A stretch of 64,000 bases of DNA, from contig CAWINM010000001.1 in the NCBI GenBank assembly GCA_963837455.1, positions 2,312,202 through 2,376,201 of the forward strand, read 5' to 3'. The position numbers were made by a program, and so were the translations under genes. How positions within the stretch are numbered: position 1 is the first letter of the stretch; each line of letters opens with the position of its first letter. Under the pieces are notes generated by a model. That model saw only the letters and a program-made list of their open reading frames with translations, was not told where the DNA came from and made no database searches. Source of the DNA: Thermoanaerobaculia bacterium. GTDB lineage: Bacteria; Acidobacteriota; Thermoanaerobaculia; Multivoradales; JAIOJS01. Below are positions 1,012-64,000 of this stretch, in pieces.

Positions 1012-1578
1012 TCAGCGCTCGGCGGCGCCGCTGCGGCTCGGCGCCGCCGCCGCCAGCGGGGCCCACTCCTCCTTGACGATGGCGAACAGGTAGTTGTCCA
1101 CCCACTTGCCGTCGAGTTGGAAGTAGCCGCGGAGGGTGCCCTCGCGACGGAAGCCAAGGCGCTCGAGCACCTTCTGCGAGGCGATGTTGGCGAGCGCGGT
1201 GCGCGCCTCGAGCCGGTGCAGGCGGGTGCGGGCGAAGAGGTCCGAGATCAGCCGGCTGAGGGCGCGCTGCATCAGGCCACGACGCTGGAACGGCGTCGAC
1301 AGGGAGTATCCGCACTCGGCGAGCCCATGCTCCCAGCTGTGGATGACGAGAGTGATCCACCCCGCCGGCTGCCGGTGGACGAGGACGATCCAGTCGAAGC
1401 GGTCGCCGCGGCTGCGCCAGAGATCCTCGGCGTGGCGCGAGGCGAGCTCGGTGCGCAGCTGCGAGGTCGAGAGCGGCGCCAGCGGCTGGTAGCGGCGCAC
1501 CGACTTTTCGGCGCGCCACAGATGCAGGAGAGCGGCGTCCTCCACTCGCGCCGGCCGCAGCTCGATCTCGGCGCTCAT
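1012..1578 (-). CDS. GNAT-family N-acetyltransferase (RimJ/RimL-like)
   Basis: 189 aa starting MSAEIELRPARVEDAALLHLW, with the C-terminal acetyl-CoA binding motif ALANIASQKVLERLGFRREGTL. The long N-terminal extension of ORF 1012..2601 is the GT2 gene read in another frame. Confidence 0.8.
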   Translation of the reverse strand: MSAEIELRPARVEDAALLHLWRAEKSVRRYQPLAPLSTSQLRTELASRHAEDLWRSRGDRFDWIVLVHRQPAGWITLVIHSWEHGLAECGYSLSTPFQRRGLMQRALSRLISDLFARTRLHRLEARTALANIASQKVLERLGFRREGTLRGYFQLDGKWVDNYLFAIVKEEWAPLAAAAPSRSGAAER

Positions 1579-3189
1579 GCTTCCACTGCGAGCGCCCGCT
1601 CCGTGCGCGGCGCCGGGCGATCGGCGGGCCGCAGGGCGAGCAGGAAGAGGTAGCCGTAGCCCTGCAGGAAGAGGTAGAGAAACGGCAGTGAGAGCCACAT
1701 TCCGAGCGCGATGGCAGTGAGGCAGCAGGCGGCGAAGTAGGCGGCGAGGGCGCCCTCGATCCAGAAGGAGAGGCGGCGCCCGCGGCCGTAGCCCGAGCTG
1801 GCGCGCGGGGAGTGCCTCGCGGCGGCGGCCGGTGTCGCCGCGGCCGGGCTTTCCGCATCGCGGTTGCTCGGCAGTGCCGATATGGACGGGGTCCAGTGAA
1901 AGGCTCCGGTGTTCCTCTCGAAACCGTACTTCGGCGTGCGGTGGAAGGTGCCGCCGCGACGCAGCGCGCCGGCGACCACCGCGGCGCTGTTGGTCACCGA
2001 GAGCCCGATGCCGGTCGCCATCAGTGCGGGCAGCAGGCGCAGGCGAGCGCGCCAGGGCTCCCCCACCGCCACCTGGCTGGCGACGTAGAAGAGCAGCACC
2101 GAGCCGGTGGCGACGCCGAAGAGCGGCAGGTCGAAGGCGAGCAGCTGCTGCCAGCCGCTGCCGCGCCGCAGCAGCATGGCGGGGAAGATGAGCGCGGCGA
2201 GAAGCGCCATCAAGGGATAGGAGAGGTTGGCAGTGAGGTGCACGAAGGCCTCGGCGCGCACCCGCCAGGGCAGTGGGGCGGCGAGCAGACGCGGGAGCAG
2301 CTTGCGCGCGGTCTGGATCGAGCCCTTCGCCCAGCGGTGCTGCTGCGCTCTTGAAGTCGGCGATGTCGGCGGGCAGCTCGGCCGGCACCACCACGTCGGG
2401 GAGGAAGACGAAGCGCCAGCCGGCGAGCTGGGCGCGGTAGGAGAGGTCGAGGTCCTCGGTCAGCGTGTCGGCCTGCCAGCCGCCGGCGTCGTCGATGGCC
2501 GGCGCGCCGCCAGACGCCGGCGGTGCCGTTGAAGTTGAAGAAGCACGCCCGACGCGGTGGCGGGCGGTGTGCTCGATGACGAAGTGGCCGTCGAGCAGCA
2601 TCGCCTGCGCGCGGGTGAGCCAGCGAGTCCTCCGCGGTTGAGGTGCCCCCAGCGGGCCTGGACCATGCCGACGCCGGCGGGTCGGCGAACCAGGGCACGA
2701 GGCGGCGCAGGAAGTCGGGCTCGGGCACGAAGTCGGCGTCGAAGACGGCGATCAGCTCGCCGCGGGCGCGACGCGAGGCCGGCGGCGAGCGCGCCCGCCT
2801 TGAAGCCGTCGCCGCTCGCAGCGGCGGAGCATGGTGGATGTCGAGCCCGTCGCGGCGCAGCTCGGCGCGACCGCGCGGCCACGATGGCGCTGGTCGTCGT
2901 CGGTCGAGTCGTCGAGCACCTGCACCTCGAGGCGATCGCGCGGATAGTCGAGCGCCGCGACGGCGCGCATCAGGCGTTCGGCGACGTAGCGCTCGTTGTA
3001 GAGCGGCAGCTGCACCGTCACCCGCGGCCAGGCGGCATCGTCGGGTGCCGGCGGCGGCTGCAGCGGCCGCCGCCGCGTCGACCACCAGTCGGCGAGCAGC
3101 ACCAGACGGTGGCACCCGTAGAAGGCCAGCACCAGCAGCACCCCGTAGTAGGTCGCGAGCACCAGCCGTGCCGGCGTCAGCAAACCCAC
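1575..3189 (-). pseudogene. GT2 glycosyltransferase (cellulose-synthase-like, polyprenyl-phosphate sugar synthase type) with at least 3 frameshifts
   Basis: The GT2 motifs are split over three reading frames. QLPLYNE and LDDSTDD are in ORF 2752..3189, FDADF and FNFNGTAGVWRR in ORF 2210..3493, DLSYRAQLAGWRF in ORF 1012..2601 and the C-terminal TM segment in ORF 1575..2261. The end overlaps the GNAT start by 4 nt. Confidence 0.65.
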
Positions 3190-3247
3190 GGCAGCCCCTT
3201 CGCGCTCGCTTCGGCGTCGTCGTGCCCCTGCTCGGCGAGGTGACCGC

Positions 3248-4583
3248 GATGGCGCTGCTCGCCCTCGCGGGCGACCCGGCGCGGCGACCGCGGCTCACTC
3301 TCGGGCTGCTCGCCGCCGCCTGCCTCTGCCTGGCGGCGCTGGTGCGCGGCGCGGCGCGCTCGCCGCTCTCCGCGGGCGCCGTTCTCGGCGCTGCCGCCCT
3401 CCTGCGCCTGCTGATGCTGCCGCTGCCGCCCGCCCTCTCCACCGACGTCTGGCGATACCTGTGGGACGGCCGCCTGGCGATGCACCACCGCAACCCGTAC
3501 CTGCTTCGCCCCGACGACCCGGCGCTGGCCGGGCAGCGCGACGCGCTCTGGCAACGCCTCGAGCACCGTGACGTGCCGACCGTCTATCCGCCGCTGGCGA
3601 TGGCGCTCTTCGTGCTCCCTGCCGGGCTGGCGCCGCGCGCGGGGATGGTCGCCTGGAAGCTTCTCGTTGCCCTCGTCGACCTCGGGAGTTGCGCGCTGCT
3701 GCTGCGGCTCGCCGACGAGGCGGGCTGGCCCCGCCAGCGGGTGCTCTGGTACGCCGCCCATCCATTGGTGGCGCTCGAGGTCGCCGGGATGGGGCACCTC
3801 GAGCCGATGGGCGTGACGGCGTCGGTGCTGGTGGCGCTGTGGCTGCGCCGCGGGCGGGCGAGCGGCGCCGGGGCCGCAGCGGCCGCGGCCGGGCTCGCCA
3901 AGCTCATCCCCTTCGCGGCGGTCCCGATGTGGGCTCGGCAGGCGCGAGGATTCGCCTCGAGGGAAAGGCGCGCCGACGGCGCCGGCGCCTTCCTGCTGAC
4001 CGCCGTCGGGCTGTCGGCGCTGGCGCTGTGGCCGGTGGCTACCACCGCCGGCAGCATCCCGCCCGGTCTTGCCACCTACGCCCTGCGATGGGAGTTCGGC
4101 GGTCCGCTGCACGAGCCCCTCTGGCGGCTGCTGGCGGCGGCCCGCGCCCCGGAGGCCCTCAAGCACGGGCTGGATCTTATGAAAGAGCGCGTGGGAATGC
4201 ATGCGCTGTGGAACCGCATCTACCCCTGGGCCTACCCGCAGCTGCTGTCGCGACTGCTGCTCGCCGCGGGCGCGGCGGCGCTGGTGGCGCGCTCCTGCCT
4301 GTCGCGGCACCGGCGCTGGAGCGACCCGGTGACGGGCGGCGCCGCACTGTTCGGCGGGCTGCTGTTGTGCTCGCCCACGGTGTATCCCTGGTACCTGCTG
4401 TGGGTGCTGCCCTGGGCAGCGCTCACCGCGCGTGCGCCCTGGCTGCTGGCGGCGGCCCTGGCGCCGCTGCTCTACGTGCCGGCGCTCGTCGGCGTGCCGC
4501 TGTGGCCGTGGATCCACCTGGCGGTGTGGGCGCCGCCGCTGGCGCTGTGGGTGGTGGAACGGTGGCGACGGCCCCCGAGCTGA
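3248..4583 (+). CDS. DUF2029 / GT87-like polytopic membrane glycosyltransferase (polyprenyl-P-sugar dependent mannosyltransferase family)
   Basis: ATG at 3248 (MALLALAG...). The protein is multi-TM and carries [17 protein letters not shown] and [10 protein letters not shown] motifs. The upstream part of ORF 2643..4583 is low-complexity Arg/Ala antisense to the GT2 gene. Confidence 0.6.
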
Positions 4584-5414: not shown

Positions 5415-6218
5415 ATGCCGGATCTCGCCCGTCTCGCCGCCGCCGGTTCCCCGGAAGAGCTCCTCGTCAGACGCCTGGACCTGGCGCGGCTGCCACGCCA
5501 CGTCGCCATCATCATGGACGGCAACGGTCGCTGGGCGAAGGCTCGCAGCCTGCCTCGCGTCGAAGGGCACCGCGCCGGCGTGCAGGCCGTCCAGGACACC
5601 GTCGAGGCCGCCGGCCAGCTCGAGCTACAGGCGCTCACCCTCTATGCCTTTTCGGTGGAGAACTGGAAGCGTCCCCGCTACGAGGTGTGGACGCTGATGA
5701 ACTTGCTGAAGGACTACATCAGGCAGGAGCTCGACACACTGGTGGGCAACGACGTGCACCTCGAGGTGGTGGGGCGCTGGCGCGAGCTCGACGCCTCGGT
5801 GGTGACGGCGCTCGAGCGGGCGATCGCCGCCACGTCCCACTGCCGGGGGATGCGCCTCAACATCGCCCTCAACTACTCGGGGCGCTGCGAGATCGTCGAC
5901 GCCTGCCGGCGCATCGTCGCCGACTGGGCGGCGGGGAAGCGGGCGGACATCGACGAGGAGACCCTCGGTCGCTACCTCTACACCGCCGGGCTGCCCGACC
6001 CCGACCTGCTGGTACGTACCTCGGGGGAGATGCGAGTCTCCAACTTCCTGCTCTGGCAGATCGCCTACAGCGAGATCTGGGTGACCAATACCCTGTGGCC
6101 GGACTTCCGCCGGCGCGAGCTGTTCGAGGCGATCCTCGACTTCCAGCGCCGGGAGCGGCGCTACGGTGGCGTCTCTCCCGACGAGGCGGTGCTTGCCCCG
6201 CAGGCGCAGCATCGCTGA
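5415..6218 (+). CDS. uppS: Undecaprenyl-diphosphate synthase (isoprenyl transferase)
   Basis: Motifs HVAIIMDGNGRWA, LTLYAFSVENWKRP and VRTSGEMRVSNFLLWQ. Confidence 0.9.
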   Translation: MPDLARLAAAGSPEELLVRRLDLARLPRHVAIIMDGNGRWAKARSLPRVEGHRAGVQAVQDTVEAAGQLELQALTLYAFSVENWKRPRYEVWTLMNLLKDYIRQELDTLVGNDVHLEVVGRWRELDASVVTALERAIAATSHCRGMRLNIALNYSGRCEIVDACRRIVADWAAGKRADIDEETLGRYLYTAGLPDPDLLVRTSGEMRVSNFLLWQIAYSEIWVTNTLWPDFRRRELFEAILDFQRRERRYGGVSPDEAVLAPQAQHR

Positions 6219-33058: not shown

Positions 33059-34628
<1,570 letters not shown>

Positions 34629-40241: not shown

Positions 40242-40312
40242 CGTTGGCTGGTTCGGTCACTCCGGCGCAGAGCCAGGGCAGGCCCCGCTCCGCTAGAATC
40301 CCCGGCTACGCC

Positions 40313-43048
<2,736 letters not shown>

Positions 43049-43151
43049 GGGGGTTCCCACAGGCACCGCGGGCGCCCGCTCGAGGCGGCAGGGCACCCGC
43101 GGGAGCCTCGAGAGCCGTCCGCTCGCGCCGAGCGCTCCGACCGCAGCGCGC

Positions 43152-45800
43152 TCAACCCGGAGCCGGTTCCACGCGTGCCAGTGCCTTCAGCACCTTGTCG
43201 ATCGACGAGTGACCGGGTGGATAGGCCTTGCGGTAGATGCCCAGGGCTTCCTGGTAGAGACCGCGTGCCTCGTCGCGCGCGTGCCGCCGTTCGAGGCAAT
43301 CGGCGAGGTCGAAGAGGGCGTCGCCGTAGGGCGGGTCGTTGGCATCGACGGCCTTCCGCGTCATCGCCAGCGTGCGCCGGAAGGTGTCCTCGGCCTCCGC
43401 CAGTCGCCCTAGCCCGACGAGCGCCTGACCCACGAGCCCGAGGCTCTGGGCAACCTGGGCGTCCACCCCGTCCGCGGAGCCGTGCTCGCGGATCTCCAGG
43501 GCGCGCCGGAAGAGCTCGAGCGCCCGAGCGGGTTCCCCCAGCGCCAGCCGGCACCTGCCCTCGTTCAGCACCGGATAGGCGGTATAGCGATGGTCGGGTC
43601 CGAGCGCCGCGGAGAAGATCGCGGCCGAGTGGGCGAACAGGGGAATGGCTTCCGTACAGCGGCCGCGGTCGATCAGCAGGTTCGCGAGCGAGTTGAGCGC
43701 CGTGGCGTACTGCGCGTGCTGCTCGCCCCACGTGCGGCGCACGAGATCCACCGCCCGGGTCAGCACCGGCTCCGCTTCGTCGAAGCGCTCCTCGGCGCGC
43801 AGCAGTGCACCGAGGTTGTCGAGTGGTAGGGCGATCAGGGGGCTGTCCTTCCCCGAGCTCCGTTCCAGGATCTCGATGGCGCGGCGGTAGGCAGCTTCGG
43901 CCGCCGGGTACTCTCCGACGTCGTCGAGCACCAGCCCAAGATTGTTCTGCCAGCGCCCGGTCTCGTCGCCCTCGACGCCGAGGGTATGCGCGATCGCGAG
44001 GGCGCGCTCGAACTCGTGCCGCGCGGCCGGCGGGTCTCCCTGGTAGCGCAGCACCACACCGAGCGCCGAGTGGGATCGCGCCACGTCGAGGTCGTTCGAC
44101 CCCAGGTCGCGCTCGCGGATGCGCAGGGCCTGCTCGAGATTCCGGCGCCCGTCGTCCAGGCGGTCTAGATAGCGGTCGAGGCTGCCGAGCTCGTAGAGCG
44201 CCTCGGCGGTCGGCAGGCTCTCGTCGCCGAACTGGCGATGGCGTTGCGCGAGCGCCTGCTCGAGGAGGGGACGGGCGTCCTCGTAGAGCCCGAGGTCGCG
44301 CTCGACGCCGCCGATCGCCAGCCGCAGCGTGGCCTGAACCTCCGGCTCGGCGGCGAGCTCCTTGTCGATCCGCTGCGCGCCGCTCACCAGCACCTCGCGA
44401 GCCGTCAGCTGGGCGCCGCGAGTGTGCGCCGGGTCGGCCTGCTGGAAGAGGTGAGTGAGGAAATCCGAGACGTGGCGAGCGGTCGCCGCCTGGATGCGCG
44501 CCTGGTCGCGCTCGGCGCGCGCCACTCGTGCCTCGTAGGCCACCGCCACCAGTCCAGCCGCCACGGCGAGGAGGACGCCGGCGCCCGCCGCCGCCGCCGC
44601 CCGGTGGCGCAGCACGAGCTTGCGGGTGCTGTAGAGGCGGCTGCCCCGTCGCGCGCTCACCGGCCTGCCGTCGAGATACGCGCCGAGGTCGCCCGCGAGC
44701 TCGGTGGCCGACCGATAGCGCGCCTCGGGGTCGACACGCAGCGCCTTGAGCACCACTGCGTCGAGATCGCCGGCCAGCGATCGCGCGCGCTGGCGTACCT
44801 CGCGACTCGTGCCGGGCGACTCGAGCAGCTTGCGGCTGGGTGGTCGCGTCGTCTCCCGCGCCAGCTCCTGCGCCAGGCCGGCGGGGGTCGCTGTGCTCCG
44901 CCGGTGCGGCACCTCGCCGGTGAGCAGCTCGTAGAGCAGCACCCCGAGCGCGTAGACGTCGACCGCGGTGGTGACCGGCTCGCCGAGGATCTGCTCGGGT
45001 GCCGCATACTGCGGTGTCAGCAGCCGCGACTCGCTGCGCGTCAACGCCTCCCCTTCCTCCTCCTCGAGCACCTTGGCGATGCCGAAGTCGAGCAGCTTCA
45101 CCCGTCCGTCGGCGGTGACCAGCAGGTTCGAGGGCTTGAGGTCGCGGTGCACCACCAGCCGCCGGTGGGCCGCATCGACCGCCTCGCAGACCTCGACCAT
45201 CAGGCGGAGCCGGGACCGCAGGTCGAGGGCGCGCTCGGCGGCGTAGCGGGTGATCGGCACGCCGTCGACGCGCTCGAGCGCGAACCAGGGCAGCCCTTCC
45301 TCGGTCACGCCGCCGTCGAGCACCTTGACGATGGCCGGGTGGTCGAGGCTGGCGAGCAACTGGCGCTCACGCAGGAAGCGGCGCTGGAGCTCGGGGGTGT
45401 CGACGCTGCGGCGCAGGACCTTCACCGCCGCCTCCTGCGCGAACGTGCCGTCGGCGCGCTCGGCGCGGTAGACCGTCCCCATGCCCCCCTGGCCCAGCGG
45501 CTCGTGGAGCTGCCAGACCCCGAGCCGCTGCCCGTTCCAGCGCATGGCGTCCGCCGCCCGCGGGCCGGTGGGGACCCCCTCGCCGAGCGCCGCCACGAGC
45601 GCCGCCGCCCCACCGTCGAGGAACGAGCCGCCAACGCCGTCGGCGCGCAGCAGCTCCTCGAGGTCGCGGGCCTGGGCGGGATCGGTGGCGCGGAGCTCGG
45701 CGAGCAGCTTCTCGCGCTCCGGCAGGTCGAGCTCGAGTGCCCTGGCCAGCAGCTCGCGGGAGCGCCTCCAGGCCGCCTCGGGGGGCGGATCGGCGCTCAC
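43152..45800 (-). CDS. Ser/Thr protein kinase with TM segment and C-terminal TPR array
   Basis: GTG at 45800 overlaps the sigma-factor stop (GTGA). The kinase has [33 protein letters not shown] and APEQ, then a TM helix and about 9 TPR repeats. Confidence 0.8.
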
Positions 45801-46405
45801 GCGGAGGAGGCGAGCATCCCCAGCTCGCGGTGCAGGAAGGCCCGCGCGGTGCGCCAGTCGCGCTTGACGGTGGTCGGCGAACGCTCCACGAGCTCGGCGA
45901 TCTCCTCGACGGAGAGACCGCCGAAGAAGCGCAGCTCGACAATCCGTGCCTGCTCGGCGTCCGCCGCGGCCAGCCGCGCCAGCGCCTCCTCGAGGGCGAG
46001 GACGTCGATGGGTGCGATCGGCGTCTCCTGCGCCACGTCGACCACCCAGCTCACCGGTTGGCCGCCGCCGCCGCGCTTGGCCGCCCGGCGCGCCCGTGCG
46101 TGATCGACCAGGATGCGCCGCATCGCCTGCGACGCCACCGCAAGAAAGTGGCCGCGGTTCTTCCATGCGACGCGGGTCTGATCGACCAGTCGCAGGTAGG
46201 CCTCGTGCACCACCGCCGTGGCCTGGAGCGTCGAGCCGGAGCGCTCGCGGCGGAGGTGCCGCGAAGCGATCGTCCGCAGCTCCGCGTAGACGAGCGGCAG
46301 CAACCGCTCGAAGGCGCCGGTGTCGCCGGCGCTCCAGGAGACCAGCAGCCGGGTCACCTCGCCCCGTTGCGGCTCCGACTCGACGTCGCCGCGATCTCCG
46401 TCCAT
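45797..46405 (-). CDS. ECF-type sigma-70 family factor (kinase-associated ECF subfamily)
   Basis: Sigma2 region (HEAYLRLV) and sigma4 (LSVEEIAELVERSPTTVKRDWRTARAFL). It sits immediately upstream of, and is translationally coupled to, the kinase. Confidence 0.8.
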   Translation of the reverse strand: MDGDRGDVESEPQRGEVTRLLVSWSAGDTGAFERLLPLVYAELRTIASRHLRRERSGSTLQATAVVHEAYLRLVDQTRVAWKNRGHFLAVASQAMRRILVDHARARRAAKRGGGGQPVSWVVDVAQETPIAPIDVLALEEALARLAAADAEQARIVELRFFGGLSVEEIAELVERSPTTVKRDWRTARAFLHRELGMLASSA

Positions 46406-46616: not shown

Positions 46617-48341
46617 TCAGCCGAAACGGTCGCCGGCGAAGCTGATGCGGGCGGTGGTTCCTCCCGCCGGCCGCGGCTCGAGCGTGAGGGTGCCGCCGTG
46701 CAGGGCGACGATGCGATGGGCGAGGGCGAGGCCGAGCCCGACGCCACCGGGGCGATCGGAGGCGAAGGGCTGGAACAGGCGCTGGCGCATCTCTGCCGAC
46801 ACCCCGGGGCCATGGTCGCGGATGGCGATCTCGAAGGCGCCGTCGCGCCAGCCGGTCTCCACCTCCACCGGCGTCGTGGCGCCGCTGCGCTGCTGGGCCT
46901 CGAGAGCGTTGCGCAGCAGGTTGCGCAGGGCCCGCTCGAGTAGCTGGGGGTCACCCGGCAGCACCGCCGGCGGCGTCGGCTCGGCTCGCAAGGCCAGGGC
47001 CGCGCCGTCGAGGGCGGGGTCGGCGGCGGCGTGCCGCACCAGCGCCATCAGGTCGACGGCGACGAGCCGCGCCGCCGCAGGATGGGCAAAGCCGAGAAAG
47101 TCGGTGACCACGCGCTGCAGCCGCTGCGTCTCGCCGCGCAGCTCGACGAGGTACTCGCCGCTGCTGGGGCCTCCGCCGTCGCGCTCGAGCAGGGTCAGAT
47201 AGCCGCCCAGCGTGGCGAGGCCGTTGCGCAGCTCGTGGGCGACGCCGGCAGAGAGCTCGCCGAGGTGTGCGAGGCTCTCCGCGAGCCGTGCCTGGTGCCC
47301 CTCGCGCTCGCTGGCCGTCAGGTCGGCGAACAGCACGAGGTAGCCGAGCAGCTCCCCACCAGGCCGCCGCAACGGGGTGACGGTGAGGCCGATGCGGTGG
47401 GGTTCGCCACCGGCGACGACCTCGCATTCGCGGCGCTGCAGCGCCTCGCCGGCGTCGATCGCCCGCTGCAGCAGCGCCAGCAGCTGGGGCTGCCCGGCGA
47501 GCAGCTCGGTCATCGGTGTACGAGGGGGAGGTGGTGGGCCCAGCAGGGTCGCCCCCGCAGGGTTGAGGGCCAGCACCTGCCCTTCGCGATCGAGCAGCAG
47601 CAGGCCGCTTTCGAGGCTCGCGGCCAGGGTTCGCTCGAGCACCACCAGCTCCTCGCTACGATCGCCAGCTCCCTCGCGGACGCCGCCAAGGGCCCGTTCG
47701 ATGGTGGCGAGGAGAAAGGCCGCTTCGTCCTCGGCTCCGCTGGCGCCGAGCTCGCGGGCACGCCGTAGCAGCGTCTCGTAGGGGCGCAGCAGTTGGCGCA
47801 GGAAGAAGAGGACCCACAGCAGCACCGCCACGCTGGCGCCCAGCGCGGTCCAGGTGAGCACCCCGAGGGCGCGGCGCTGACCGTCGAGCACCGGAGCCGC
47901 GAGGTCGAGCCGCAGCCAGCGCCGCGACGCGCCCCCGCCCAGCGGTACGAAGGCACTCACCACACCCCGCGCTTCCTCGCTGGGGCCCACCGCGATGGCA
48001 CCGTCGGGAAGCTTGCCGCCGAGGGGAGCCGCGAAGGGGCCCTCGAGCGGCTCGCCGACGGCGGCGACGAGCTGACCGCCCGGCGCGGCAACGGCGAGGC
48101 GGAGAGCCGCCGGATGGTAGCCGCGCAACGCGTCGGCGCCGGGAAGCTCGCCGCCGGCCAGCCGCTGGGCCGCGGCGCGAGCCGTCACCAGCGCCTCCCG
48201 CTGGCGATCGAGCAGCAGCAGGCGAATGCCGTTGCGGTAGGTGAGCACGGTGAAGCTGGTGAGGACGAGCAGCAGCACCAGCGCCACCGGGAGCATCACC
48301 CAGGCATCGCGCATCGGGCTGGGCGCTGCCGGTTGGCTCAT
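46617..48341 (-). CDS. Sensor histidine kinase (HisKA plus HATPase_c) with an N-terminal TM and periplasmic sensor
   Basis: ATG at 48341 overlaps the pilD stop (ATGA). H-box ELSAGVAHELRNGLATL, N-box LRNLLRNALEA, and G-boxes DHGPGV and GGVGLGLAL. Confidence 0.8.
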   Translation of the reverse strand: MSQPAAPSPMRDAWVMLPVALVLLLVLTSFTVLTYRNGIRLLLLDRQREALVTARAAAQRLAGGELPGADALRGYHPAALRLAVAAPGGQLVAAVGEPLEGPFAAPLGGKLPDGAIAVGPSEEARGVVSAFVPLGGGASRRWLRLDLAAPVLDGQRRALGVLTWTALGASVAVLLWVLFFLRQLLRPYETLLRRARELGASGAEDEAAFLLATIERALGGVREGAGDRSEELVVLERTLAASLESGLLLLDREGQVLALNPAGATLLGPPPPPRTPMTELLAGQPQLLALLQRAIDAGEALQRRECEVVAGGEPHRIGLTVTPLRRPGGELLGYLVLFADLTASEREGHQARLAESLAHLGELSAGVAHELRNGLATLGGYLTLLERDGGGPSSGEYLVELRGETQRLQRVVTDFLGFAHPAAARLVAVDLMALVRHAAADPALDGAALALRAEPTPPAVLPGDPQLLERALRNLLRNALEAQQRSGATTPVEVETGWRDGAFEIAIRDHGPGVSAEMRQRLFQPFASDRPGGVGLGLALAHRIVALHGGTLTLEPRPAGGTTARISFAGDRFG

Positions 48342-49111
48342 AGCAGCCGAGCGTAGCGGTCGAGGAGGGCCGGGCCGGCGAACACGGCAACACCGGCGCC
48401 ACCGGCGAGGAAGACGCCGAAGGGGAGGCGGGAGCCGAGGTCGAGGCGGCCCAACGCGATCAACGTCAGACCGACGAGCGCACCGCCGAGCGAGCCGAGG
48501 AAGACGGTGATGAGCACCCCCTGCCAGCCCAGAAAGGCTCCCACCATGGCGAGCATCTTGACGTCGCCGAGACCCATGCCCTCCTCGTGGCGCAACAGCA
48601 GCCACGCCTGCGCCAGCAGCCATAGGCCCGCACCACCGAGCGCAGCGCCGAGCAGCGACTGCCGCCAGTCGATCCAGTCGGCCCGCAGTGAGATGAGAAA
48701 CCCGATGGCGAGGCCGGGGAGGGTGATGGCGTCGGGGAGCAGGAAGTGCTCGTAGTCGATGAGGGCGAGGGCGATGAGCGCGGCGCCGAAGGCCGCCGCG
48801 GCGAGCGCGTGCCAGGTGACGCCGAAGGCCTCGAGACTGCCGACGAAGAGCGCCCCGGTGGCGGCCTCGACGAGCGGGTACCGCCAGGAGATCGGCGCCC
48901 GACAGCTCCGACAGCGCCCGCGCAGCAGCAGGAAGCTCAGCAGCGGCAGGTTGTCGCGCACCCGCAGGAGCGCCCCGCAATGCGGGCAGCGCGAGCGCGG
49001 CAGCACCGTCGACTCCTCGCGTGGCAGTCGATGGATGACGACGTTGAGATAGCTGCCGATCACCAGGCCGAGGAGCCCGGCGTAGACGTCCACCAGCACC
49101 CTGAGGGTCAT
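48338..49111 (-). CDS. pilD: Prepilin peptidase (A24 family, type 4 prepilin-like leader peptidase)
   Basis: N-terminal tetra-Cys motif (CPHCGALL...CRSCRAP) and membrane-domain motifs LALIDYEHFLLPD and GLGDVKML. ATG at 49111 overlaps the stop of the upstream membrane protein. Confidence 0.85.
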   Translation of the reverse strand: MTLRVLVDVYAGLLGLVIGSYLNVVIHRLPREESTVLPRSRCPHCGALLRVRDNLPLLSFLLLRGRCRSCRAPISWRYPLVEAATGALFVGSLEAFGVTWHALAAAAFGAALIALALIDYEHFLLPDAITLPGLAIGFLISLRADWIDWRQSLLGAALGGAGLWLLAQAWLLLRHEEGMGLGDVKMLAMVGAFLGWQGVLITVFLGSLGGALVGLTLIALGRLDLGSRLPFGVFLAGGAGVAVFAGPALLDRYARLL

Positions 49112-51483
49112 GCCGGCGATTCTACGGTCGACGAGGGAGCGCCGTGGGTCGGGCCGGCGGGGCGGCGCCGCAGTGCCACCAGGGCGGCGCCGAGCAGGGT
49201 CAGCCCGGTGCCGGCGGCGCCCAGTCGCACCCAGGGGTCGTGGTAGGCGAGCCGCAGGGTGTGCTCTCCCGCCGGCAACGCCACGCCCACCTGCCCGAGG
49301 CTGGTGGGGCAGGTGGGCACCGGGGTGCCATCCTCGAGCCGTGCTTCCCAGCCTTCGTCGAAGGTGAGGGCGGCGACCAGGAAGGCGGGGCCTGTAGCCC
49401 GATAGCGCAGCCGCACCTCCTGGCGCTGCCGGGCCGCGAGGACGTGGGCCGGCGCGTAGGCGGCCGCCGGTGCGGCGGCTCCCACGCAGAGGTCGGCGGT
49501 GGCGAGGTCGAGCGTCGGCAGCGCCGCGGTGGCCTCGGCAGCGGTGGCCACCCCGGTCACCGAGCCGACGAAGCGGAAGCGCGGCAGCCGGCGGGGCTCG
49601 GGCAGGAGCTGGTACGGCTGCGGCGGCTTCCGCGTCAGGCGGAGCTCGCGCACCAGCTGGCGCGGATCGCGTCGCAGCACCAGGGTGCTGACGTCCCAGG
49701 CTCCCAGGAGGCGGTCGACGGCATCGCGATTGGGCCAGGCGGCCTCGAGCTGCGCGAGGGAGTGGCGGGCCCAGGAGGTCAGCATCAGGTCGTAGTCGTG
49801 GTGCAGCGCGTACTCGAGACCCCACAGATTGGCGACGTAGGGGTCGAGCCGCTGAATACGCTCCCACAGCTGCTGGAAGCCGCGTGGGCCCCGTCTCAGG
49901 CCGATCTCGGGGCGGCGGTCGAGGTCGGCGCTGCTGAACAGGCGTCCGCCCTCGGCACGCGCCGGCGCGACCGCGGGTGGAGGGGTCAACACCTCGGTGG
50001 CGGGCAGCGTCGGCTCGAGCCCTCGGCCGTACCACCAGAGGTCCATTGCGAGCAGCGCCAACGCCGCGACGGCGGCGCCGCGACGGCTCAATCGGGTGCC
50101 GCCGAGCAGGACGAGGAGGAGCGTCGCGCCCGCGGCCAGCAGGAGTGCCACCAGCGCCTCCCGACGGAGGAAGGCGAGGGCGATGGCGAGGGCCCGCGGT
50201 GACGGCGGCAGGCCGCTGTGGCCCCGGATGAACCCCTCACCCACGGCGGGGCGCGCCGCGAGCAGCACGGCGAAGAGGGTCGCCACGGCAGTGACGATGG
50301 CGGCCAGCGCCGCCGGCAGATACGCCCGCTCGCGCTCGCCACGCTCGCGGCTGCCGAGCAGGTGGTGCCAGCCGAGGGCACCGGCGAGTGGCACCACTGC
50401 GGCGGTGAGCACGAGGAACTTCTCCGGGTAGCGCACCACGGACAACAGGGGCACGTGGCGCAGCGGCTCCCACAGTGGGTCGTGGCGGCCGAGCGCGAGC
50501 AGGGAGCCGAGGACGGCCGCAACCCCCCACGAGGCCCGATAGGGGATCGGCCAGCGCAGCAGTGCGGCGACCGCGAGCACGGTGAGCAGCAGGCCGGAGT
50601 AGAGCGCGACGACGTAGGGGAAATCACGATCGTGCAGTCCCCAGCCTAGCCACAGCCCCTCCTCGTCGCGCATCGGATCACCCCAGAAGCGCGGCAGCAC
50701 GAAGTCGACGAAGCGGGCTGGCGGGCTGGACCACAGATCCGCCTCAGCGGCCCTGAGGCCGGTGCCGCGAGCGGTGCCTCCGAGGCGGTGCAGGGTCGGG
50801 GCGAGCTGCACGGCAGCGATAGCGGCTGCCAGCACGCCGATGGCCAGCAAGCGCGCCAGGCTGCGGCGCAGCCGCGCGAAGGGGCCGAGGGCGAGGGCGG
50901 CGAGGGCCAGGCCCGAGATCAGCACCGCGACGGGCTCTCCCGCCAGCAGCTGCAGCGCGAGGCCGAGGGCGGCGAGCAGCGCCTTCCCCCCCCAGCGACC
51001 CGCACGCGGGGTGGCGAGCGCCGCCTCGCCCGCCGCCAGCACCCAGGGGAACCAGGCCATGGCGCAGTAGAAGTTGAAGGTGCTGGTGAGCGAGAGGAAC
51101 CAGCTCGAGGCGGCGAAGCCCATGGCGCCGAGGGCGGCGGCGTCGCGACCGGCTCCCAGGCGTCGCAGCAGCAGCCAGGCGCCGGCGAGGGCCCAGGCCG
51201 CGTGCAGGATCACCAGCCAGGCGAGCGCGTACGGGACCGGCAGAGCCAGGGCGAGCCAGCTGGGGGGATAGAAGGCCGCGTAGTTGGGATTGGAAAGGAT
51301 CGGCTGTCCGCCGTGCACGAAGCGGTTCCACTCCGGCAGCGCACCGGCGTGCACGAGATCCGCGACCACCTGCCGCAGCGGGAGGTGAAAGAAGGCGAAG
51401 TCGCGGACCATGAGCACCCGCCCGGGGAGAGCGAGTGGCACCAGCAAGACGGCGAGCAGCAACGCCCCCGGCAGCAGCGGCAA
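49108..51483 (-). CDS. Large polytopic membrane protein with a C-terminal extracytoplasmic domain, GT-C-like (YfhO-like) putative glycosyltransferase
   Basis: 791 aa. About 13 predicted TM segments are followed by a soluble domain of about 330 aa. It is a paralog of the protein at 62261.. (shared R-D..L...L, NPN.A.FYP and W..LRRLG.D.AA.G motifs). TTG start at 51483. Confidence 0.55.
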   Translation of the reverse strand: MPLLPGALLLAVLLVPLALPGRVLMVRDFAFFHLPLRQVVADLVHAGALPEWNRFVHGGQPILSNPNYAAFYPPSWLALALPVPYALAWLVILHAAWALAGAWLLLRRLGAGRDAAALGAMGFAASSWFLSLTSTFNFYCAMAWFPWVLAAGEAALATPRAGRWGGKALLAALGLALQLLAGEPVAVLISGLALAALALGPFARLRRSLARLLAIGVLAAAIAAVQLAPTLHRLGGTARGTGLRAAEADLWSSPPARFVDFVLPRFWGDPMRDEEGLWLGWGLHDRDFPYVVALYSGLLLTVLAVAALLRWPIPYRASWGVAAVLGSLLALGRHDPLWEPLRHVPLLSVVRYPEKFLVLTAAVVPLAGALGWHHLLGSRERGERERAYLPAALAAIVTAVATLFAVLLAARPAVGEGFIRGHSGLPPSPRALAIALAFLRREALVALLLAAGATLLLVLLGGTRLSRRGAAVAALALLAMDLWWYGRGLEPTLPATEVLTPPPAVAPARAEGGRLFSSADLDRRPEIGLRRGPRGFQQLWERIQRLDPYVANLWGLEYALHHDYDLMLTSWARHSLAQLEAAWPNRDAVDRLLGAWDVSTLVLRRDPRQLVRELRLTRKPPQPYQLLPEPRRLPRFRFVGSVTGVATAAEATAALPTLDLATADLCVGAAAPAAAYAPAHVLAARQRQEVRLRYRATGPAFLVAALTFDEGWEARLEDGTPVPTCPTSLGQVGVALPAGEHTLRLAYHDPWVRLGAAGTGLTLLGAALVALRRRPAGPTHGAPSSTVESPA

Positions 51484-51542
51484 AGCGCGCGCGAGACGAG
51501 AGCCGCGAGGGGCGATCGCGCGCTCCTGGCCGCGCCGCGGCG

Positions 51543-52061
51543 TCAGTTGCTCAATCGCTGCGGCCAGCGGACGAAGAAGCCGTCGACCCAGACGATGTCC
51601 TGGGAGTAGTCGGTCGGCTCGAACGCGCCGGGAGTGTAGGTGTCGGTCTCGAAGCTGTTCCCCTGGCCGGCGCTGCGCACCGCCATCACGGACGCCCCGT
51701 GGGGGTCGGCGGTGTCGAGGTAGTAGTCGTAGGGTTTCTTCCAGCCGTCGAGCAGCGGAACGTCCTGGATGTAGGTGGGCACGATCTGCTTGGCGAGGTC
51801 GTCGCGCCCGATCGGCGAGTAGTCGGAGATGGCAACAGTGGTCACCGCGGCCCCTGCGGCGGCGGCACCTACCTGGTCCGTGAGCCAGCCCATCATCGAC
51901 CCGCCGACCAGCCGGCAGTCGGCCATGGTCTTCTTCTGCTTCGCCTTCTGCATGGCGTCGAGCAGGTTGGGTATGAGCATGGCTGCCAGCAGGCCAATGA
52001 TGGCCACGACGATCAACAGCTCGATCAGAGTGAATCCCCTCTCCCGGAACGCTCGACGCAT
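51543..52061 (-). CDS. Prepilin-type (class III signal peptide) pseudopilin, GspG/PulG-like, paralog 1
   Basis: MRRAFRERGFTLIELLIVVAIIGLLAAM with Gly at -1, Phe at +1 and Glu at +5, then PNLLDAMQKAKQKKT. The C-terminus ...FEPTDYSQDIVWVDGFFVRWPQ is shared with paralog 2. Confidence 0.8.
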   Translation of the reverse strand: MRRAFRERGFTLIELLIVVAIIGLLAAMLIPNLLDAMQKAKQKKTMADCRLVGGSMMGWLTDQVGAAAAGAAVTTVAISDYSPIGRDDLAKQIVPTYIQDVPLLDGWKKPYDYYLDTADPHGASVMAVRSAGQGNSFETDTYTPGAFEPTDYSQDIVWVDGFFVRWPQRLSN

Positions 52062-52121
52062 CTCAGGTCCCCCTTGAATTGGGAATTGCGGATGGGACCA
52101 TTGCAAGCGGCGAGCCAGAGC

Positions 52122-53561
52122 CTAGCGGGGCGGGAGCGACCAGGCCCGCACCACGCGACGCATCCTCTCGATGCCGCGGTCGAGCTCGCGCAGGGGGATG
52201 CGCTCGTCCGCGCCATGGATTCCCAGCAGGTCCTGGGGTTCGAGGGCAAACGGCGAGAAGCCATAGGCGGCGATGCCCCGCTGGCGGAAGAGCCGAGAAT
52301 CGGTGAAGCCTGGGGAGAAGAAGGGCACCACGGGGGCCTCGCTGCGGAGAGCCGCAGTGAGAGCACGGTGCAACGGAGTGTCGGTGGGGCTGGCGGGGCA
52401 GGGGGGAGAGGTGAGCAGGACCCGTGCCTCGACCTCCTTACCGAGGAGGCTCTGGATCTCCGCCAGCATGGCTGGGCCGTCGGTGTCGGGCAGCAGGCGC
52501 ACGTCCACGCGCGCCGTGGCCCGCGGGGGCACGACGTTGATCTGGGTGGCGCCGGTGAGCACGTTGACCTGGATGGTGTCGAGGAAGAGGTTCTCCATGC
52601 CCGGCAGCAGGCCGGTGCCCACCGGTCCTTCGGGGCGGATGAAACGGTCGGGGTCGGCGAGCATCGGCTTCCAGAACTTGTTGTGCAACGGAGCGAGTGC
52701 CTGCAAGTAGTTGCGAGCCGCGGCGCTGACCCGCCAGCGCAAGGGGCGGGCGAGCAGACGGTCGAGGGCCCGGATCAGCTCGTGGGTCGCCGAGTGGGGA
52801 TTGAACCCGGCTCCATGACCGCCGCGCCCCTCCGCCGTCACCTCCAGCCAGAGCGGACGCTTTTGTGCCACCTCGATACCCCACCAGAGCAGGCGACCGT
52901 TGATCCGCCTGTTCGAGCCCCCCTCGTTGATCACGCCGGTGACGCCTGCGAACAGCTCCGGGTGGGCCTGCAGGAGCCAGGCGGTGCCCTCGCCACTGCC
53001 GCGCTCTTCGTCGGCGACGGCCATCAGCACGACGTCCCGTGTCAGGGCGTGGCGCTCGCGGGCGGCGTCCAGGAACGCAGCGAGCTGGGTGATCCCCAGG
53101 CTCTTGTCGTCGAGCGCGCCGCGGCCGAAGAGGCGCCCATCATGAACCTCGCCACCGAACGCGGGGACGTGCCAGCCCGGCCCGGGAGCGACCACGTCCA
53201 TGTGGTGCAGCAGCAGCAGCGCCGGCCCGTCGACCCCGGGCCGTGCCTGGAGGCGCGCCCACAGGCTGGTGCGGCCCGCCGGCGAGACCACGCGCCGCGA
53301 GGCGATGCCGTGCTCGGAGAGCAGCTTCTCGAGGAACGCCGCCGCCCGCTGCTCGTTGCCAGGGGGGTTCGTCGTGTCGAGCCGCAGGTACTCCTGGAGC
53401 CAGCGGGCGGGCTGGGAGAGGGTCCTGGCGTCGGGGGCCGCGGGGCCGTGGCAGCAGAGCAGGCCGGCGAGCAGCAGGGGAGCGAGCCGGCGCACGTCGC
53501 GACTGTAGCAGCGCTGGGGACGCCGGGGTTCATGGGGAGGGATCCAGGTCAGGTGGGCCAT
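52122..53561 (-). CDS. Secreted M20-family metallopeptidase (ArgE/DapE/CPG2-like), paralog 1
   Basis: ATG at 53561 with signal peptide LAPLLLAGLLCCHGPAAP. Metal-binding motifs LLLHHMDVV, GRGALDDKS and DEERGS, plus the dimerisation domain. Confidence 0.8.
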   Translation of the reverse strand: MAHLTWIPPHEPRRPQRCYSRDVRRLAPLLLAGLLCCHGPAAPDARTLSQPARWLQEYLRLDTTNPPGNEQRAAAFLEKLLSEHGIASRRVVSPAGRTSLWARLQARPGVDGPALLLLHHMDVVAPGPGWHVPAFGGEVHDGRLFGRGALDDKSLGITQLAAFLDAARERHALTRDVVLMAVADEERGSGEGTAWLLQAHPELFAGVTGVINEGGSNRRINGRLLWWGIEVAQKRPLWLEVTAEGRGGHGAGFNPHSATHELIRALDRLLARPLRWRVSAAARNYLQALAPLHNKFWKPMLADPDRFIRPEGPVGTGLLPGMENLFLDTIQVNVLTGATQINVVPPRATARVDVRLLPDTDGPAMLAEIQSLLGKEVEARVLLTSPPCPASPTDTPLHRALTAALRSEAPVVPFFSPGFTDSRLFRQRGIAAYGFSPFALEPQDLLGIHGADERIPLRELDRGIERMRRVVRAWSLPPR

Positions 53562-53633
53562 CTCGGTACCGGGATGCAGTAGGGGGTGGAAGCGCCGCTG
53601 CCCTGGCGGTCGGCCGAACGAGCGGAAGGCGAG

Positions 53634-62260: not shown

Positions 62261-64000
62261 ATGGTGGCGCTGCAGCTGCTCGCCGTTGGCACGCTGGTCC
62301 TCGGCCGCGACACCCTCTACCTGCGCGACGTCCTCACCACCCACCTGCCGATGAAGCAGGCCGAGGCGCAAGCCTTGCGCCGCGGGGAGCTTCCCGAGCT
62401 CGACGTCCAGCGGGGGGGTGGCCAGCCGCTGCTCGGCAACCCCAACGGCGCACCGTTCTACCCCGACACGTTGCTGTGCCTCGTGGCGCCGACGCGCTGG
62501 GCCGTCAACGCCCACTTCTGGCTCCATTTCCTGCTGGCTCCATGGACCTTCGCCTGGCTCGCGCGGCGACTCGGTTGCGATCCCGACGCCGCCTGGGCGG
62601 GCGGCGCGGCCTACACGCTCTCTGGCTTCCTGCTCTCGCAGCTGAGCTACTACGACTTGGTGGCGGGCGCCACCCTCGCGCCGGCTCTCGTCGCCGCGTG
62701 CCTGCTGGCGCGCGACGGCGCGCTGGCGGTGGCCCGTCGCAGGGGTGCCGCGGCAGCCGGGGCCGTGTGGGCCATGCTGCTGCTCGGCGGGGATCCGGCG
62801 TTTGCCGCGCTGGCGATGGTGGCGGCCCTCCTCGCTCTGGTGCTGGCGCCTCGCCCGTTGGCGGGCGAGACAGCAGGCGCAGGCGCCCCGCCAGGCCTCC
62901 CGGGAGCGCTCGACGGCTGGCCTTCGACCGGCGTCGAAGGGACCGTGGCGATCGCCGCCGCCACTGCCGGTGCGTCGCAGGGCAGGTTGCCGTTGCGCCG
63001 CACCGCCGCGCGGTGGTTGCCGCTCGCGCTCGCCATCGCCGCCGGCACGGCGCTGGCGGCGCCGCAACTCAGCGAGCTCCTACGCATCCTCTCCGCCTCG
63101 ACGCGTGGCGTGCGCGGCTACGACGCGGCGGCCCGGACTCTCGGCAGCTGGGATCCCCGCCAGGCCCTCGAGCAGCTGCTGCCGCTCGCCTTCGGGCGCC
63201 TCGACCGTACCGCCGCCGGCGGTTTCTGGGGCTACCGCTTCCACACCGGGGCGCTGCCGTTCTTTCTCACCCTCTATCCTGGCCTGCTGCCGCTAGGGCT
63301 CGCGGTGGCGGCCGGCCGCCGGCGCGGCGCCGCCGTCGGCTGGGTCCTCGTTGGTTGCGGCGTGCTGCTCGCGCTCGGCCGCTTCGACCCGCTCGTCGCC
63401 GCGCTCGCAGCACTCCCCGGCGGCGGCCTGCTGCGCTTTCCGGTCAAGGCCTGGCTGCTGGTGGCGATCGGTCTTTCCGTGCTCGCCGCGACAGGCTGGC
63501 AGCGGGCGGTGTCGGCGGGCGAGCCGCGTGCGCGGCGGTGCCTGCGGGCGACACTGCTGGTGCTGGCGGCCGTCCTCGCTCTTGGCGCCCTTGCCGCCCT
63601 GGCCGCCAGGCCCGCGCTTCGGGGCTGGATGGTCCGCCAGCTCCCTGGCAATGCACCGCCGCAGCTGGTCGCCGGCGAGGCGACGCGCTGGGGGACCTTG
63701 GCTGCCGGGCTCGCGGTATTGGCGGTGGTGCTGGCGGCGCTTCTCTGGCGGCCGTCACGGCACCTTGCCGCGACGGCACTCGCGCTTCAGGCAGCGGCCC
63801 AGCTCGCGCTGCTCGCGCCCGCCACGCTGGCCCGCGACAGCGTCGCGCCCTATGCGCGGGCGCCGGCGTTCGCGGACCTGCTACCGACAGGGACGCGGCT
63901 CGCGCACGGTAGCCTCGGCAGGCTGTTCGGCCCGGTGCGGCGGCGCCCGCCGCCGGATGGGGACGGTCGCTGGCTGGCACGCCAGGGCGCCGCCGCGGGC
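62261..64000 (+). CDS. Large polytopic GT-C-like membrane protein, paralog of 49108..51483, 3' partial
   Basis: An open frame (frame 2) runs from 62204 to the window end and is not in the ORF track because it has no stop. I translated it by hand as ...LGRDTLYLRDVLTTHLPMKQ...NPNGAPFYPDTLLCLV...WLARRLGCDPDAAWAGGAAYTLSGFLLS... The start is ATG 62261, with an alternative at 62204. It is divergent from the UbiA gene. Confidence 0.5.
   Translation, partial: MVALQLLAVGTLVLGRDTLYLRDVLTTHLPMKQAEAQALRRGELPELDVQRGGGQPLLGNPNGAPFYPDTLLCLVAPTRWAVNAHFWLHFLLAPWTFAWLARRLGCDPDAAWAGGAAYTLSGFLLSQLSYYDLVAGATLAPALVAACLLARDGALAVARRRGAAAAGAVWAMLLLGGDPAFAALAMVAALLALVLAPRPLAGETAGAGAPPGLPGALDGWPSTGVEGTVAIAAATAGASQGRLPLRRTAARWLPLALAIAAGTALAAPQLSELLRILSASTRGVRGYDAAARTLGSWDPRQALEQLLPLAFGRLDRTAAGGFWGYRFHTGALPFFLTLYPGLLPLGLAVAAGRRRGAAVGWVLVGCGVLLALGRFDPLVAALAALPGGGLLRFPVKAWLLVAIGLSVLAATGWQRAVSAGEPRARRCLRATLLVLAAVLALGALAALAARPALRGWMVRQLPGNAPPQLVAGEATRWGTLAAGLAVLAVVLAALLWRPSRHLAATALALQAAAQLALLAPATLARDSVAPYARAPAFADLLPTGTRLAHGSLGRLFGPVRRRPPPDGDGRWLARQGAAAG

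Follow-up and report, generated by a model that had tools for sequence, protein, structure and literature searches.

What does a large membrane protein do when its gene lies between the genes for type IV pilins and the gene for the prepilin peptidase, and, if it is a glycosyltransferase, where might its sugar donor come from? The question is raised by 64,000 nucleotides (nt) of contig CAWINM010000001.1 from a soil bacterium of the class Thermoanaerobaculia, Acidobacteriota (hereafter the window, meaning that whole stretch), in which such a protein, here called YfhO1, is encoded between pilin genes and pilD, and in which a second protein, YfhO2, is encoded divergently from a gene of the UbiA family. 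The preliminary description of this sequence proposed that both are glycosyltransferases of the GT-C type, acting on the pilins with a lipid-linked pentose as donor. The best explanation that we can offer is a type IV pilin expression locus, class-wide in Thermoanaerobaculia, that carries its own periplasmic glycosylation enzymes. Within it, we propose, with a probability that we place at roughly 45%, that YfhO1 is the periplasmic glycosyltransferase of the pilins, with a polyprenyl-phosphate sugar as its donor, and that the UbiA-family protein (hereafter UbiA) provides YfhO2, and possibly YfhO1 as well, with a lipid-linked pentofuranose.

In the window, the cluster runs in the order M20-family hydrolase, pilin, M20-family hydrolase, pilin, YfhO1, PilD and PilS-like kinase (Table 1). 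As the preliminary description had it, YfhO1 is translationally coupled to pilD, its TGA overlapping the pilD ATG as ATGA at 49111-49108; the pilD TGA overlaps the kinase ATG in the same form at 48341-48338, such that YfhO1, PilD and the kinase are chained by two ATGA overlaps, with the kinase as the last gene. The YfhO1 start is probably the TTG at 51483, which restores the first transmembrane helix and lies 24 codons before the start in the source annotation. A gap of about 57 nt separates pilin 1 from YfhO1; a terminator at this position was considered and rejected, as the sequence has no terminator-like fold (z-score 0.06), and the two genes are probably co-transcribed.

This arrangement extends well beyond the source genome. 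Related loci, labelled by L-numbers, comprise 80 species-level loci with UbiA homologues 57–81% identical to that of the window (the best match among GTDB representatives being 81% identical) and 78 further YfhO1 loci from a scan of metagenome contigs (38–77% identity). The order M20, pilin, (M20), pilin, YfhO1, PilD and PAS kinase is found in all of the orthologues examined, with YfhO1 identities of 76% (L002), 66% (L082), 56% (L085), 48% (L083), 45% (L087) and 42% (L088), the PAS kinase occupying the same place in L082, L083, L085, L087 and L088. Among the metagenome loci with enough sequence, PilD follows within 600 nt downstream of YfhO1 in 41 of 46; 45 of 58 have a pilin at most 600 nt upstream of it, and a further 6 have one within 2.5 kb. 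Two to four tandem YfhO1-like copies stand between pilin and PilD in 12 of the 78 loci (for example, L118, L130, L136, L137, L139, L145, L148 and L149). The link of this GT-C gene to the pilins and PilD, central to the preliminary description, is strongly conserved, holds to about 40% identity and is no quirk of the source genome.

The structural genes of the cluster look like type IV pilins, not like the type II secretion pseudopilins for which they had been taken. They match PF07963 and TIGR02532 and have the N-terminal sequence RGFTLIELLIVVAIIG, with a class III signal peptide and a hydrophobic α1 helix; a search against the PDB matched only this generic N-terminal helix. Assignment to type II secretion was rejected, given that matches to the GspG model fall below the cutoff and that the PilS/PilR-like regulators, together with PilW, PilX and PilY1 in L087, favour type IV pili. 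In L087, the operon runs on into PilW-, PilX- and PilY1-like minor-pilin genes and is therefore a type IV pilus locus. The pilins of YfhO1 loci (L082–L166) end in a common DGFFVRWPQK sequence, often followed by a Ser/Thr-containing tail of one to three residues (TN, ATP, VST or MSS after VRWPQK; LSN at 51543-51575 and MT at 53699-53730 in the window). The VRWPQK-type C terminus is missing in five loci in which a pilin gene is followed directly by PilD, with no YfhO1. TfpO targets the C-terminal Ser of its pilin, and the tail recalls that target; we regard the C terminus as a lead to a possible acceptor site, yet shared ancestry could explain the pattern.

YfhO1 is predicted to have about 13 transmembrane helices, a periplasmic β-rich C-terminal domain and a final transmembrane helix. 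A sequence-profile search against the PDB gave nothing meaningful. An AlphaFold2 model from a 45-sequence alignment is confident (predicted local distance difference test (pLDDT) of 92.5, predicted template modelling score (pTM) of 0.91), and the top matches of its fold are exclusively GT-C glycosyltransferases (STT3, Pmt, AftD, AftA, PglB and ArnT), with AftD, ArnT, AftA and STT3 ranking first in Foldseek. Judged by this model and its match to solved GT-C enzymes, YfhO1 and, by homology, YfhO2 have the GT-C fold that the preliminary description expected of them. The alignment of the 45 orthologues contains 63 invariant columns, the Asp motif of the first loop included; this RD-x4-HLP motif directly follows the first transmembrane helix, is invariant in the 45 YfhO1 and 33 YfhO2 orthologues alike and, from the inferred topology, would lie on the periplasmic side.

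That the two large membrane proteins are paralogues, as had been suggested, is evident from the comparison of their families. BLASTP aligns the window proteins at 35% identity over 157 amino acids (E 3e-8), and hhalign profiles built from 45 YfhO1 and 33 YfhO2 orthologues align over 758 columns with a probability of 100% (E 1.2e-70) and with the R-D-x4-H-L-P motif in common. Their relation to the Pfam YfhO family (PF09586) is more remote: 38 of the 45 YfhO1 orthologues match it at E ≤ 0.01 (best 1.1e-10), as do 5 of the 33 YfhO2 orthologues (best 1.8e-5), and the YfhO2 of the window has no match. Both seem to be distant YfhO relatives rather than clear members. The ATG of YfhO2 at 62204 stands 26 nt from the UbiA start on the opposite strand, close and divergent as first described.

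UbiA carries the signature attributed to it, NDxxDxxxD...HPxKxxRPIAAG. Two curated NCBIfam equivalog models for decaprenyl-phosphate phosphoribosyltransferase recognise it, NF008977 at 274.4 bits (cutoff 234) and NF008978 at 219 bits (cutoff 207); a grouping with the quinone prenyltransferases is not seen, the UbiA, MenA and CyoE models for quinone and haem prenyltransferases all scoring below 30 bits. It aligns over its full length with the decaprenylphosphoryl-5-phosphoribose (DPPR) synthase of Mycobacterium tuberculosis (8j8j; E 3.9e-36), and no PDB family other than 8j8j/8j8k reaches E 1e-3. Its loop FNDVRDREADRRHPLKQQRPIAAG aligns with YLVNDVRDVEADREHPTKRFRPIAAG of 8j8j, with the catalytic N, D, D and D all there; the catalytic loop of Citrobacter ORF15 comprises N247/D248/D251/D255, residues essential in the Citrobacter and mycobacterial enzymes (PMC11127046). 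By sequence, UbiA is a member of the clade of DPPR and polyprenyl-phosphate phosphoribosyl (PPPR) synthases and not a quinone prenyltransferase. The window protein has no fused phosphatase domain.

As to which sugar such a synthase (PPPRS) would provide, the analogy with TfpW, the pilin arabinosyltransferase of Pseudomonas, had implied decaprenyl-phospho-arabinose. This part of the analogy finds no support here: DprE1 is absent from the window and from within 10 kb of UbiA in the 80 species, a tblastn search with the M. tuberculosis sequence (verified against the PDB) finding nothing at E ≤ 0.01 in the window and 88 related loci (1.45 Mb of neighbourhoods). A query with an unverified DprE2 sequence gave only two weak short-chain-dehydrogenase matches in the same neighbourhoods. 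In the Citrobacter work, the donor sugar without an epimerase is ribofuranose (PMC11127046). The lack of a DprE-type epimerase linked to UbiA would make ribofuranose likelier than arabinofuranose; by this analogy, ribofuranose, or another sugar, is favoured, with ribofuranose as the default prediction.

These elements can be assembled into a tentative mechanism. On the cytoplasmic face, UbiA would move ribose-5-phosphate from phosphoribosyl pyrophosphate onto polyprenyl phosphate, and the lipid-linked pentofuranose, with ribofuranose rather than arabinofuranose as its pentose, would be dephosphorylated and flipped. YfhO2, and possibly YfhO1 too, would then use it as donor. Produced along with pilin 1 and PilD, YfhO1 would add sugar to the pilins at the periplasmic face, either ahead of pilus assembly or while it proceeds, a role equal to that of TfpW and TfpO downstream of pilA in Pseudomonas, and a third GT-C protein and a DegT aminotransferase encoded divergently from the cluster may add, or use, an amino sugar.

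How firmly the two halves of this proposal belong together is best seen from the UbiA–YfhO2 module across species. A YfhO2-type gene stands divergent from UbiA in 69 of the 80 species loci, often as two tandem copies. Downstream of UbiA (loci L005–L081), 47 of the 80 have an AglJ/Dpm1-like GT2 gene with C-terminal transmembrane helices (for example, L042 10998-11978), followed by a GT4 gene in 39, and in the lineage of the window this GT2 is replaced by a fusion of major facilitator superfamily (MFS)-like and spermidine-synthase-like parts or by DegT directly. An AglJ/Dpm1-like polyprenyl-phosphate hexose transferase beside UbiA fits GT-C enzymes that use polyprenyl-phosphate monosaccharide donors. 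Two other clusters of large membrane proteins near UbiA have matches to Pfam PMT_2, which is of the GT-C type, and the rest look GT-C-like by sequence. UbiA lies directly beside a pilin cluster in the window and in L002, L004, L030, L047, L049, L080, L082, L085 and L088; in L004, L030, L047 and L046, the pilin cluster near UbiA has no YfhO1 and a different GT-C-like protein. As UbiA–YfhO2 is kept in 69 of the 80 loci and pilins are near in only about 15, these are two conserved modules, the adjacency of which is recurrent but not universal.

Several observations weigh against the proposal as a whole. We infer the pilins as acceptors from gene order only; their Ser/Thr content, at 11–13%, is not rich; and the YfhO1 of the window matches PF09586 at 20.8 bits (E 1.4e-4), below the gathering threshold of 28.5 and over its C-terminal part only. 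Six related loci have PilD straight after a pilin and lack YfhO1, which is therefore not required for the pilin system as such. On the donor side, no epimerase was identified near UbiA, and its conserved neighbours include no recognisable phosphatase of the HAD or PAP2 type and no recognisable MATE or SMR flippase. Only about 15 of the 80 species loci have a pilin cluster less than 10 kb from UbiA, in several arrangements, and around YfhO1 of L083 and L087 there is neither UbiA nor YfhO2. The majority of species instead have UbiA and YfhO2 beside genes for LpxK-like, lipid A acyltransferase, KdtA and heptosyltransferase proteins (named by reading the cluster sequences), which suggests lipopolysaccharide (LPS) or another glycan as their target.

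The last of these points lead to the alternative that fares best, although we consider it somewhat unlikely: the modules are separate, with UbiA and YfhO2 decorating LPS or some other polysaccharide of the envelope with pentofuranose side chains, for which the Citrobacter O-antigen is the prototype, and YfhO1 glycosylating pilins with a different donor, such as a hexose or an amino sugar provided through the Dpm1/AglJ-like GT2 or through DegT. The adjacency in the window would then be a lineage-specific packing of envelope genes. Such a separation would account for the rarity of pilin clusters near a UbiA–YfhO2 pair that is otherwise so widespread, for the usual neighbours of UbiA (LPS-core genes and further GT-C, GT2 and GT4 genes) and for the retention of pilin–YfhO1–PilD without UbiA in L083 and L087; moreover, the more constant neighbour of the pilin cluster is the DegT and GT-C pair. 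It sits less well with the adjacency of UbiA to pilin clusters in several distinct arrangements, more often than random placement predicts, and with the relation of the two transferases: as full-length paralogues that have their first-loop motif in common, YfhO1 and YfhO2 could plausibly draw on one class of donor. The original idea that the GT-C enzyme of the pilin operon uses a donor derived from UbiA thus stands in part, with the GT-C folds and the clade of UbiA in its favour, but the conserved partner of UbiA is YfhO2 and not YfhO1.

Less probable again is a different acceptor or a different transferase. YfhO1 might act on something other than pilin (the M20 hydrolases, LPS or a polysaccharide co-regulated with the pilus), or the ArnT/Pmt-like third GT-C might be the pilin transferase and YfhO1 an accessory that extends the glycan. 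The M20–pilin pairs are as conserved as YfhO1; loci without YfhO1 keep DegT and a GT-C (of the third-GT-C type or of a type that we call cluster 32, described below) beside M20–pilin–PilD; and the tandem YfhO1 copies in 12 of the 78 loci would fit stepwise elaboration of a glycan. All the same, we judge this distinctly unlikely, as YfhO1 is translationally coupled to PilD and directly follows a pilin gene in most loci, exactly the position held by the pilin-specific transferases TfpO and TfpW, and as the VRWPQK C terminus accompanies YfhO1 and is missing from the pilins of the five pilin–PilD loci that lack it. That the gene order is without functional meaning and YfhO1 an inactive or structural membrane protein, for which one could cite the sub-threshold Pfam match and the fact that activity in the YfhO1 clade is read from sequence and model only, is very improbable against an order that dozens of independent contigs preserve at identities as low as about 40%, a confident GT-C model and 63 invariant columns that, with the first-loop Asp motif among them, would suggest purifying selection on catalytic-loop residues.

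Pilin glycosylation by YfhO1 remains our preferred reading of the pilin operon. A more specific form of it, which we put forward as an improbable but definite version, is a class-wide, hitherto unrecognised system in which YfhO-family GT-C enzymes, encoded between pilin and pilD and some in tandem arrays, are specific for pilins, draw on a polyprenyl-phosphate ribofuranose donor from a DprE-independent PPPR synthase and act possibly at the VRWPQK(+Ser/Thr) C terminus. In that case, the pilin would be the first protein substrate of a YfhO-type enzyme and the first ribofuranosylated pilin.

Compared with systems already described, the locus points to a pilin (or envelope) glycosylation system that resembles, without being identical to, the Pseudomonas arabinose system. 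In Pseudomonas aeruginosa, group IV pilin is arabinosylated by TfpW with a D-arabinofuranose pathway encoded by PsPA7_6245-6251, and in P. indica and K. denitrificans, pilA-tfpW is clustered with the donor (PPPRS) pathway (bioRxiv 10.1101/2020.04.19.049825). In the window, too, a type IV pilin gene has a GT-C gene directly behind it, a UbiA-family PPPR synthase would provide a polyprenyl-phosphate pentofuranose donor, and pilin, transferase and donor genes are clustered. The window differs in that DprE1 is not linked to UbiA, YfhO1 lies between pilin and pilD, and there is no TfpX. The transferases themselves differ, as compared by description: the first periplasmic loop of TfpW carries a DDX motif, and the protein also has a YX6PFX7P motif and a C-terminal TPR domain, whereas YfhO1 is of the YfhO type with an RD-x4-H motif and a β-rich C-terminal domain. 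With RD in place of DD and a β-rich rather than a TPR domain, YfhO1 is unlikely to belong to the TfpW-type transferases.

Closer in its donor half is the three-component system of Citrobacter youngae O1/O2, which consists of the PPPRS-PRP protein ORF15, the MATE flippase ORF14 and the GT136 GT-C enzyme ORF12 (PMC11127046). Both have a PPPRS of the DPPR-synthase clade with an N-D-x2-D-x3-D loop beside a GT-C gene, and in both polyprenyl-phosphate ribofuranose is the expected donor without an epimerase. Unlike the Citrobacter system, the GT-C here is YfhO-like, UbiA has no fused HAD phosphatase domain, the target may be a protein, and no MATE or SMR flippase is adjacent, its place being taken by the MFS-like fusion in this lineage and by the AglJ-like GT2 and GT4 genes in most others.

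YfhO is described as a GT-C enzyme that uses C55-P-sugar donors (PMC5836110), and YfhO/GtlB proteins of Firmicutes are lipoteichoic and wall teichoic acid glycosyltransferases that work with CsbB/GtlA and GtcA (PMC5836110, PMC7389260). The resemblance lies in PF09586 at a distance, the GT-C fold and an expected C55-P-monosaccharide donor on the outer side of the membrane. The sequences are very distant, however, the window protein falling below the Pfam threshold and the best match of an orthologue being E 1e-10; the host, an acidobacterium, is diderm and would not be expected to offer a teichoic acid as acceptor; and the partners are pilins and PilD or a PPPRS rather than a CsbB-type GT2 and GtcA, with no CsbB/GtlA-type GT2 or GtcA flippase partner in the window. 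With the mycobacterial arabinan pathway (Rv3806c, Rv3807c, DprE1/DprE2 and Emb/Aft), the locus shares a UbiA protein homologous to Rv3806c over its full length (the 8j8j match above) and GT-C models that resemble AftD, AftA and AftB; it differs in having no DprE1 in the neighbourhood and in its GT-C families, and no Rv3807c-type phosphatase or Rv3789-type protein was identified near UbiA. What sets the locus apart from both the Pseudomonas and the Citrobacter systems is the YfhO-like GT-C family, the unlinked DprE1, the lack of a phosphatase fused to UbiA and the position of the GT-C between pilin and pilD. Among the top-ranked full-text matches of a literature search, there was no link between YfhO-type enzymes and pilins and no account of this locus in Acidobacteria.

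Pilin glycosylation is known mainly from a few Proteobacteria, with O-oligosaccharyltransferases of the TfpO/PglL type and TfpW, and controls phage susceptibility, adhesion and recognition by the immune system or by predators. If our proposal is true, a GT-C family new to pilin–PilD operons across a class of abundant soil Acidobacteria widens the routes of pilin modification, and the YfhO-like proteins of diderms, usually annotated as hypothetical, acquire a testable role. The near-universal PPPRS–YfhO2 pair would bring a new GT-C family and a new phylum into the recently defined three-component systems for pentofuranose, and it is a compact two-gene module that is testable in Escherichia coli.

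Table 1. Features of the pilin and UbiA–YfhO2 region, in window coordinates.
Feature	Coordinates	Strand	Evidence or remark
PAS/HisKA/HATPase sensor kinase, PilS-like	46617..48341	-	Pfam PAS_4, HisKA, HATPase_c
PilD prepilin peptidase, 257 aa	48338..49111	-	PF06750 E 8e-34, PF01478 E 1e-20
YfhO1, predicted GT-C glycosyltransferase in pilin operon, distant YfhO-family member	49108..51483	-	791 codons; G+C at third codon positions of coding type throughout
Type IV pilin 1	51543..52061	-	PF07963 E 2e-8; C terminus ...FFVRWPQRLSN
Sigma-54-type promoter-like site TGGCTC-N5-TTGC, 42-56 nt upstream of pilin 1	52103..52117	-	positional hint
M20a, exported M20-family metallohydrolase, paired with pilin 1	about 52122..53640, start uncertain	-	PF01546 E 2e-22, PF07687
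Strong terminator-like hairpin directly 3' of pilin 2 stop	53646..53671	-	11 bp, 9 G-C, then T run
Type IV pilin 2, candidate major pilin	53699..54220	-	PF07963 E 9e-11; C terminus ...FFVRWPQKMT
M20b, membrane-anchored M20-family metallohydrolase, first gene of pilin cluster	54369..55811	-	PF01546 E 9e-23
Third GT-C (ArnT/Pmt/AftB-like), 553 aa, divergent from pilin cluster	56076..57737	+	fold model
DegT/ArnB-type sugar aminotransferase, in operon with third GT-C	57751..58857	+	PF01041 E 1e-104
Fused MFS-like/spermidine-synthase-like protein, directly downstream of UbiA	58845..61310	-	NCBIfam NF037959, Pfam Spermine_synth
UbiA-family polyprenyl-phosphate 5-phosphoribosyltransferase (PPPRS/DPPRS-like), 288 aa	61311..62177	-	NF008977, 8j8j, N-D-x2-D-x3-D motif
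YfhO2, full-length YfhO1 paralogue	62204..64000	+	cut by window end; 838 aa in source genome

The ArnT-like and ArnB-like pair mentioned in the preliminary description is present as the third GT-C and the DegT aminotransferase. The former has no Pfam or NCBIfam match and, in the PDB sequence-profile search, only AftB at E 0.26; its model is confident (pLDDT 91.1) and matches the GT-C folds of Pmt4 (22.8), ArnT (21.9), AglB (21.1), STT3B (20.8) and AftB (18.7), and a PxDDxxIH motif is invariant in its first periplasmic loop. The aminotransferase matches the NCBIfam models for PseC, NF008687 (dTDP-4-amino-4,6-dideoxygalactose transaminase) and NF008658 (ArnB-type) at E 1e-54 to 1e-57, all below their cutoffs. 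A DegT and GT-C pair, or a GT-C alone, stands divergent upstream of the cluster in each relative examined (66–42% identity). Where YfhO1 is missing, a membrane protein of about 600 amino acids (cluster 32; L004 10804-12603, L030 12964-14769 and L047 12969-14804) takes the place of the ArnT/Pmt-like GT-C beside DegT; it has no Pfam match, carries a 'PADDGSYAH' motif after its first transmembrane helix and, by its sequence, is probably another GT-C. The gene calls behind such clusters are adequate for clustering, not for exact starts.

Each pilin gene is preceded by an M20 gene, a pairing conserved across the class (L002, L004, L030, L047 and L082–L088). M20a has generic M20 matches only in NCBIfam, below the cutoffs; such enzymes might serve the pilin locus either by deacylating an amino-sugar glycan or, as peptidases, by processing pilin.

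Upstream of the pilins, the sigma-54-like site of pilin 1 has a counterpart in the sequence TGGCATGCTCCGTGCT, about 80 nt upstream of the pilin 2 start (about 54280-54300). A scan of the whole window for sigma-54 promoters gave 5 matches against 3.5 expected, which is not above chance, and the sites are suggestive by position alone. A sigma-54 response regulator comes after the kinase in L082, L085 and L088, a PilS/PilR-like arrangement, and the sigma-54-like -24/-12 sites, the PAS kinase and the nearby sigma-54 regulator of the window fit control of the PilS/PilR type. In the window, the PilS-like kinase and the sigma-54 regulator are kept apart (43152-46405) by genes for an extracytoplasmic function (ECF) sigma factor (PF07638) and for a Ser/Thr kinase containing TPR repeats; the pair looks like an insertion, the two regulators adjoining in L082, L085 and L088.

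The MFS-like/spermidine-synthase-like fusion follows UbiA at 6 nt and is broken in the window into four pieces by three frame changes. We rejected the idea that it is a pseudogene, as the gene is unbroken, with one reading frame of 851 amino acids, in L003, L079 and L085 and as several unrelated genes of the window are split alike; its membrane domain is a speculative flippase candidate. Genes were called from the G+C content of third codon positions and named with Pfam and NCBIfam. Apart from the fusion (58845-61310), the genes split across frames are those for SelA, a sigma-54 response regulator, a carboxyltransferase and a GT2 (within 40055-43412, 33059-34385 and 1575-3189); orthologues of frame-split genes are single-frame and intact in L003, L079, L082 and L085, and the splits look like indel errors of long-read metagenome assembly rather than pseudogenes. 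The window has about 72% G+C, and the names of homologues place the organism in Thermoanaerobaculia, Acidobacteriota.

Far from the pilin cluster, the gene described as GT87 does encode a membrane protein, at 3168..4583, but its family match is sub-threshold (Pfam E 2.2e-4, 21.5 bits against a cutoff of 25). The genes after it, read by eye from their translations, resemble TruA, UppS (undecaprenyl diphosphate synthase; at 5415..6218), CdsA, Dxr and RseP.

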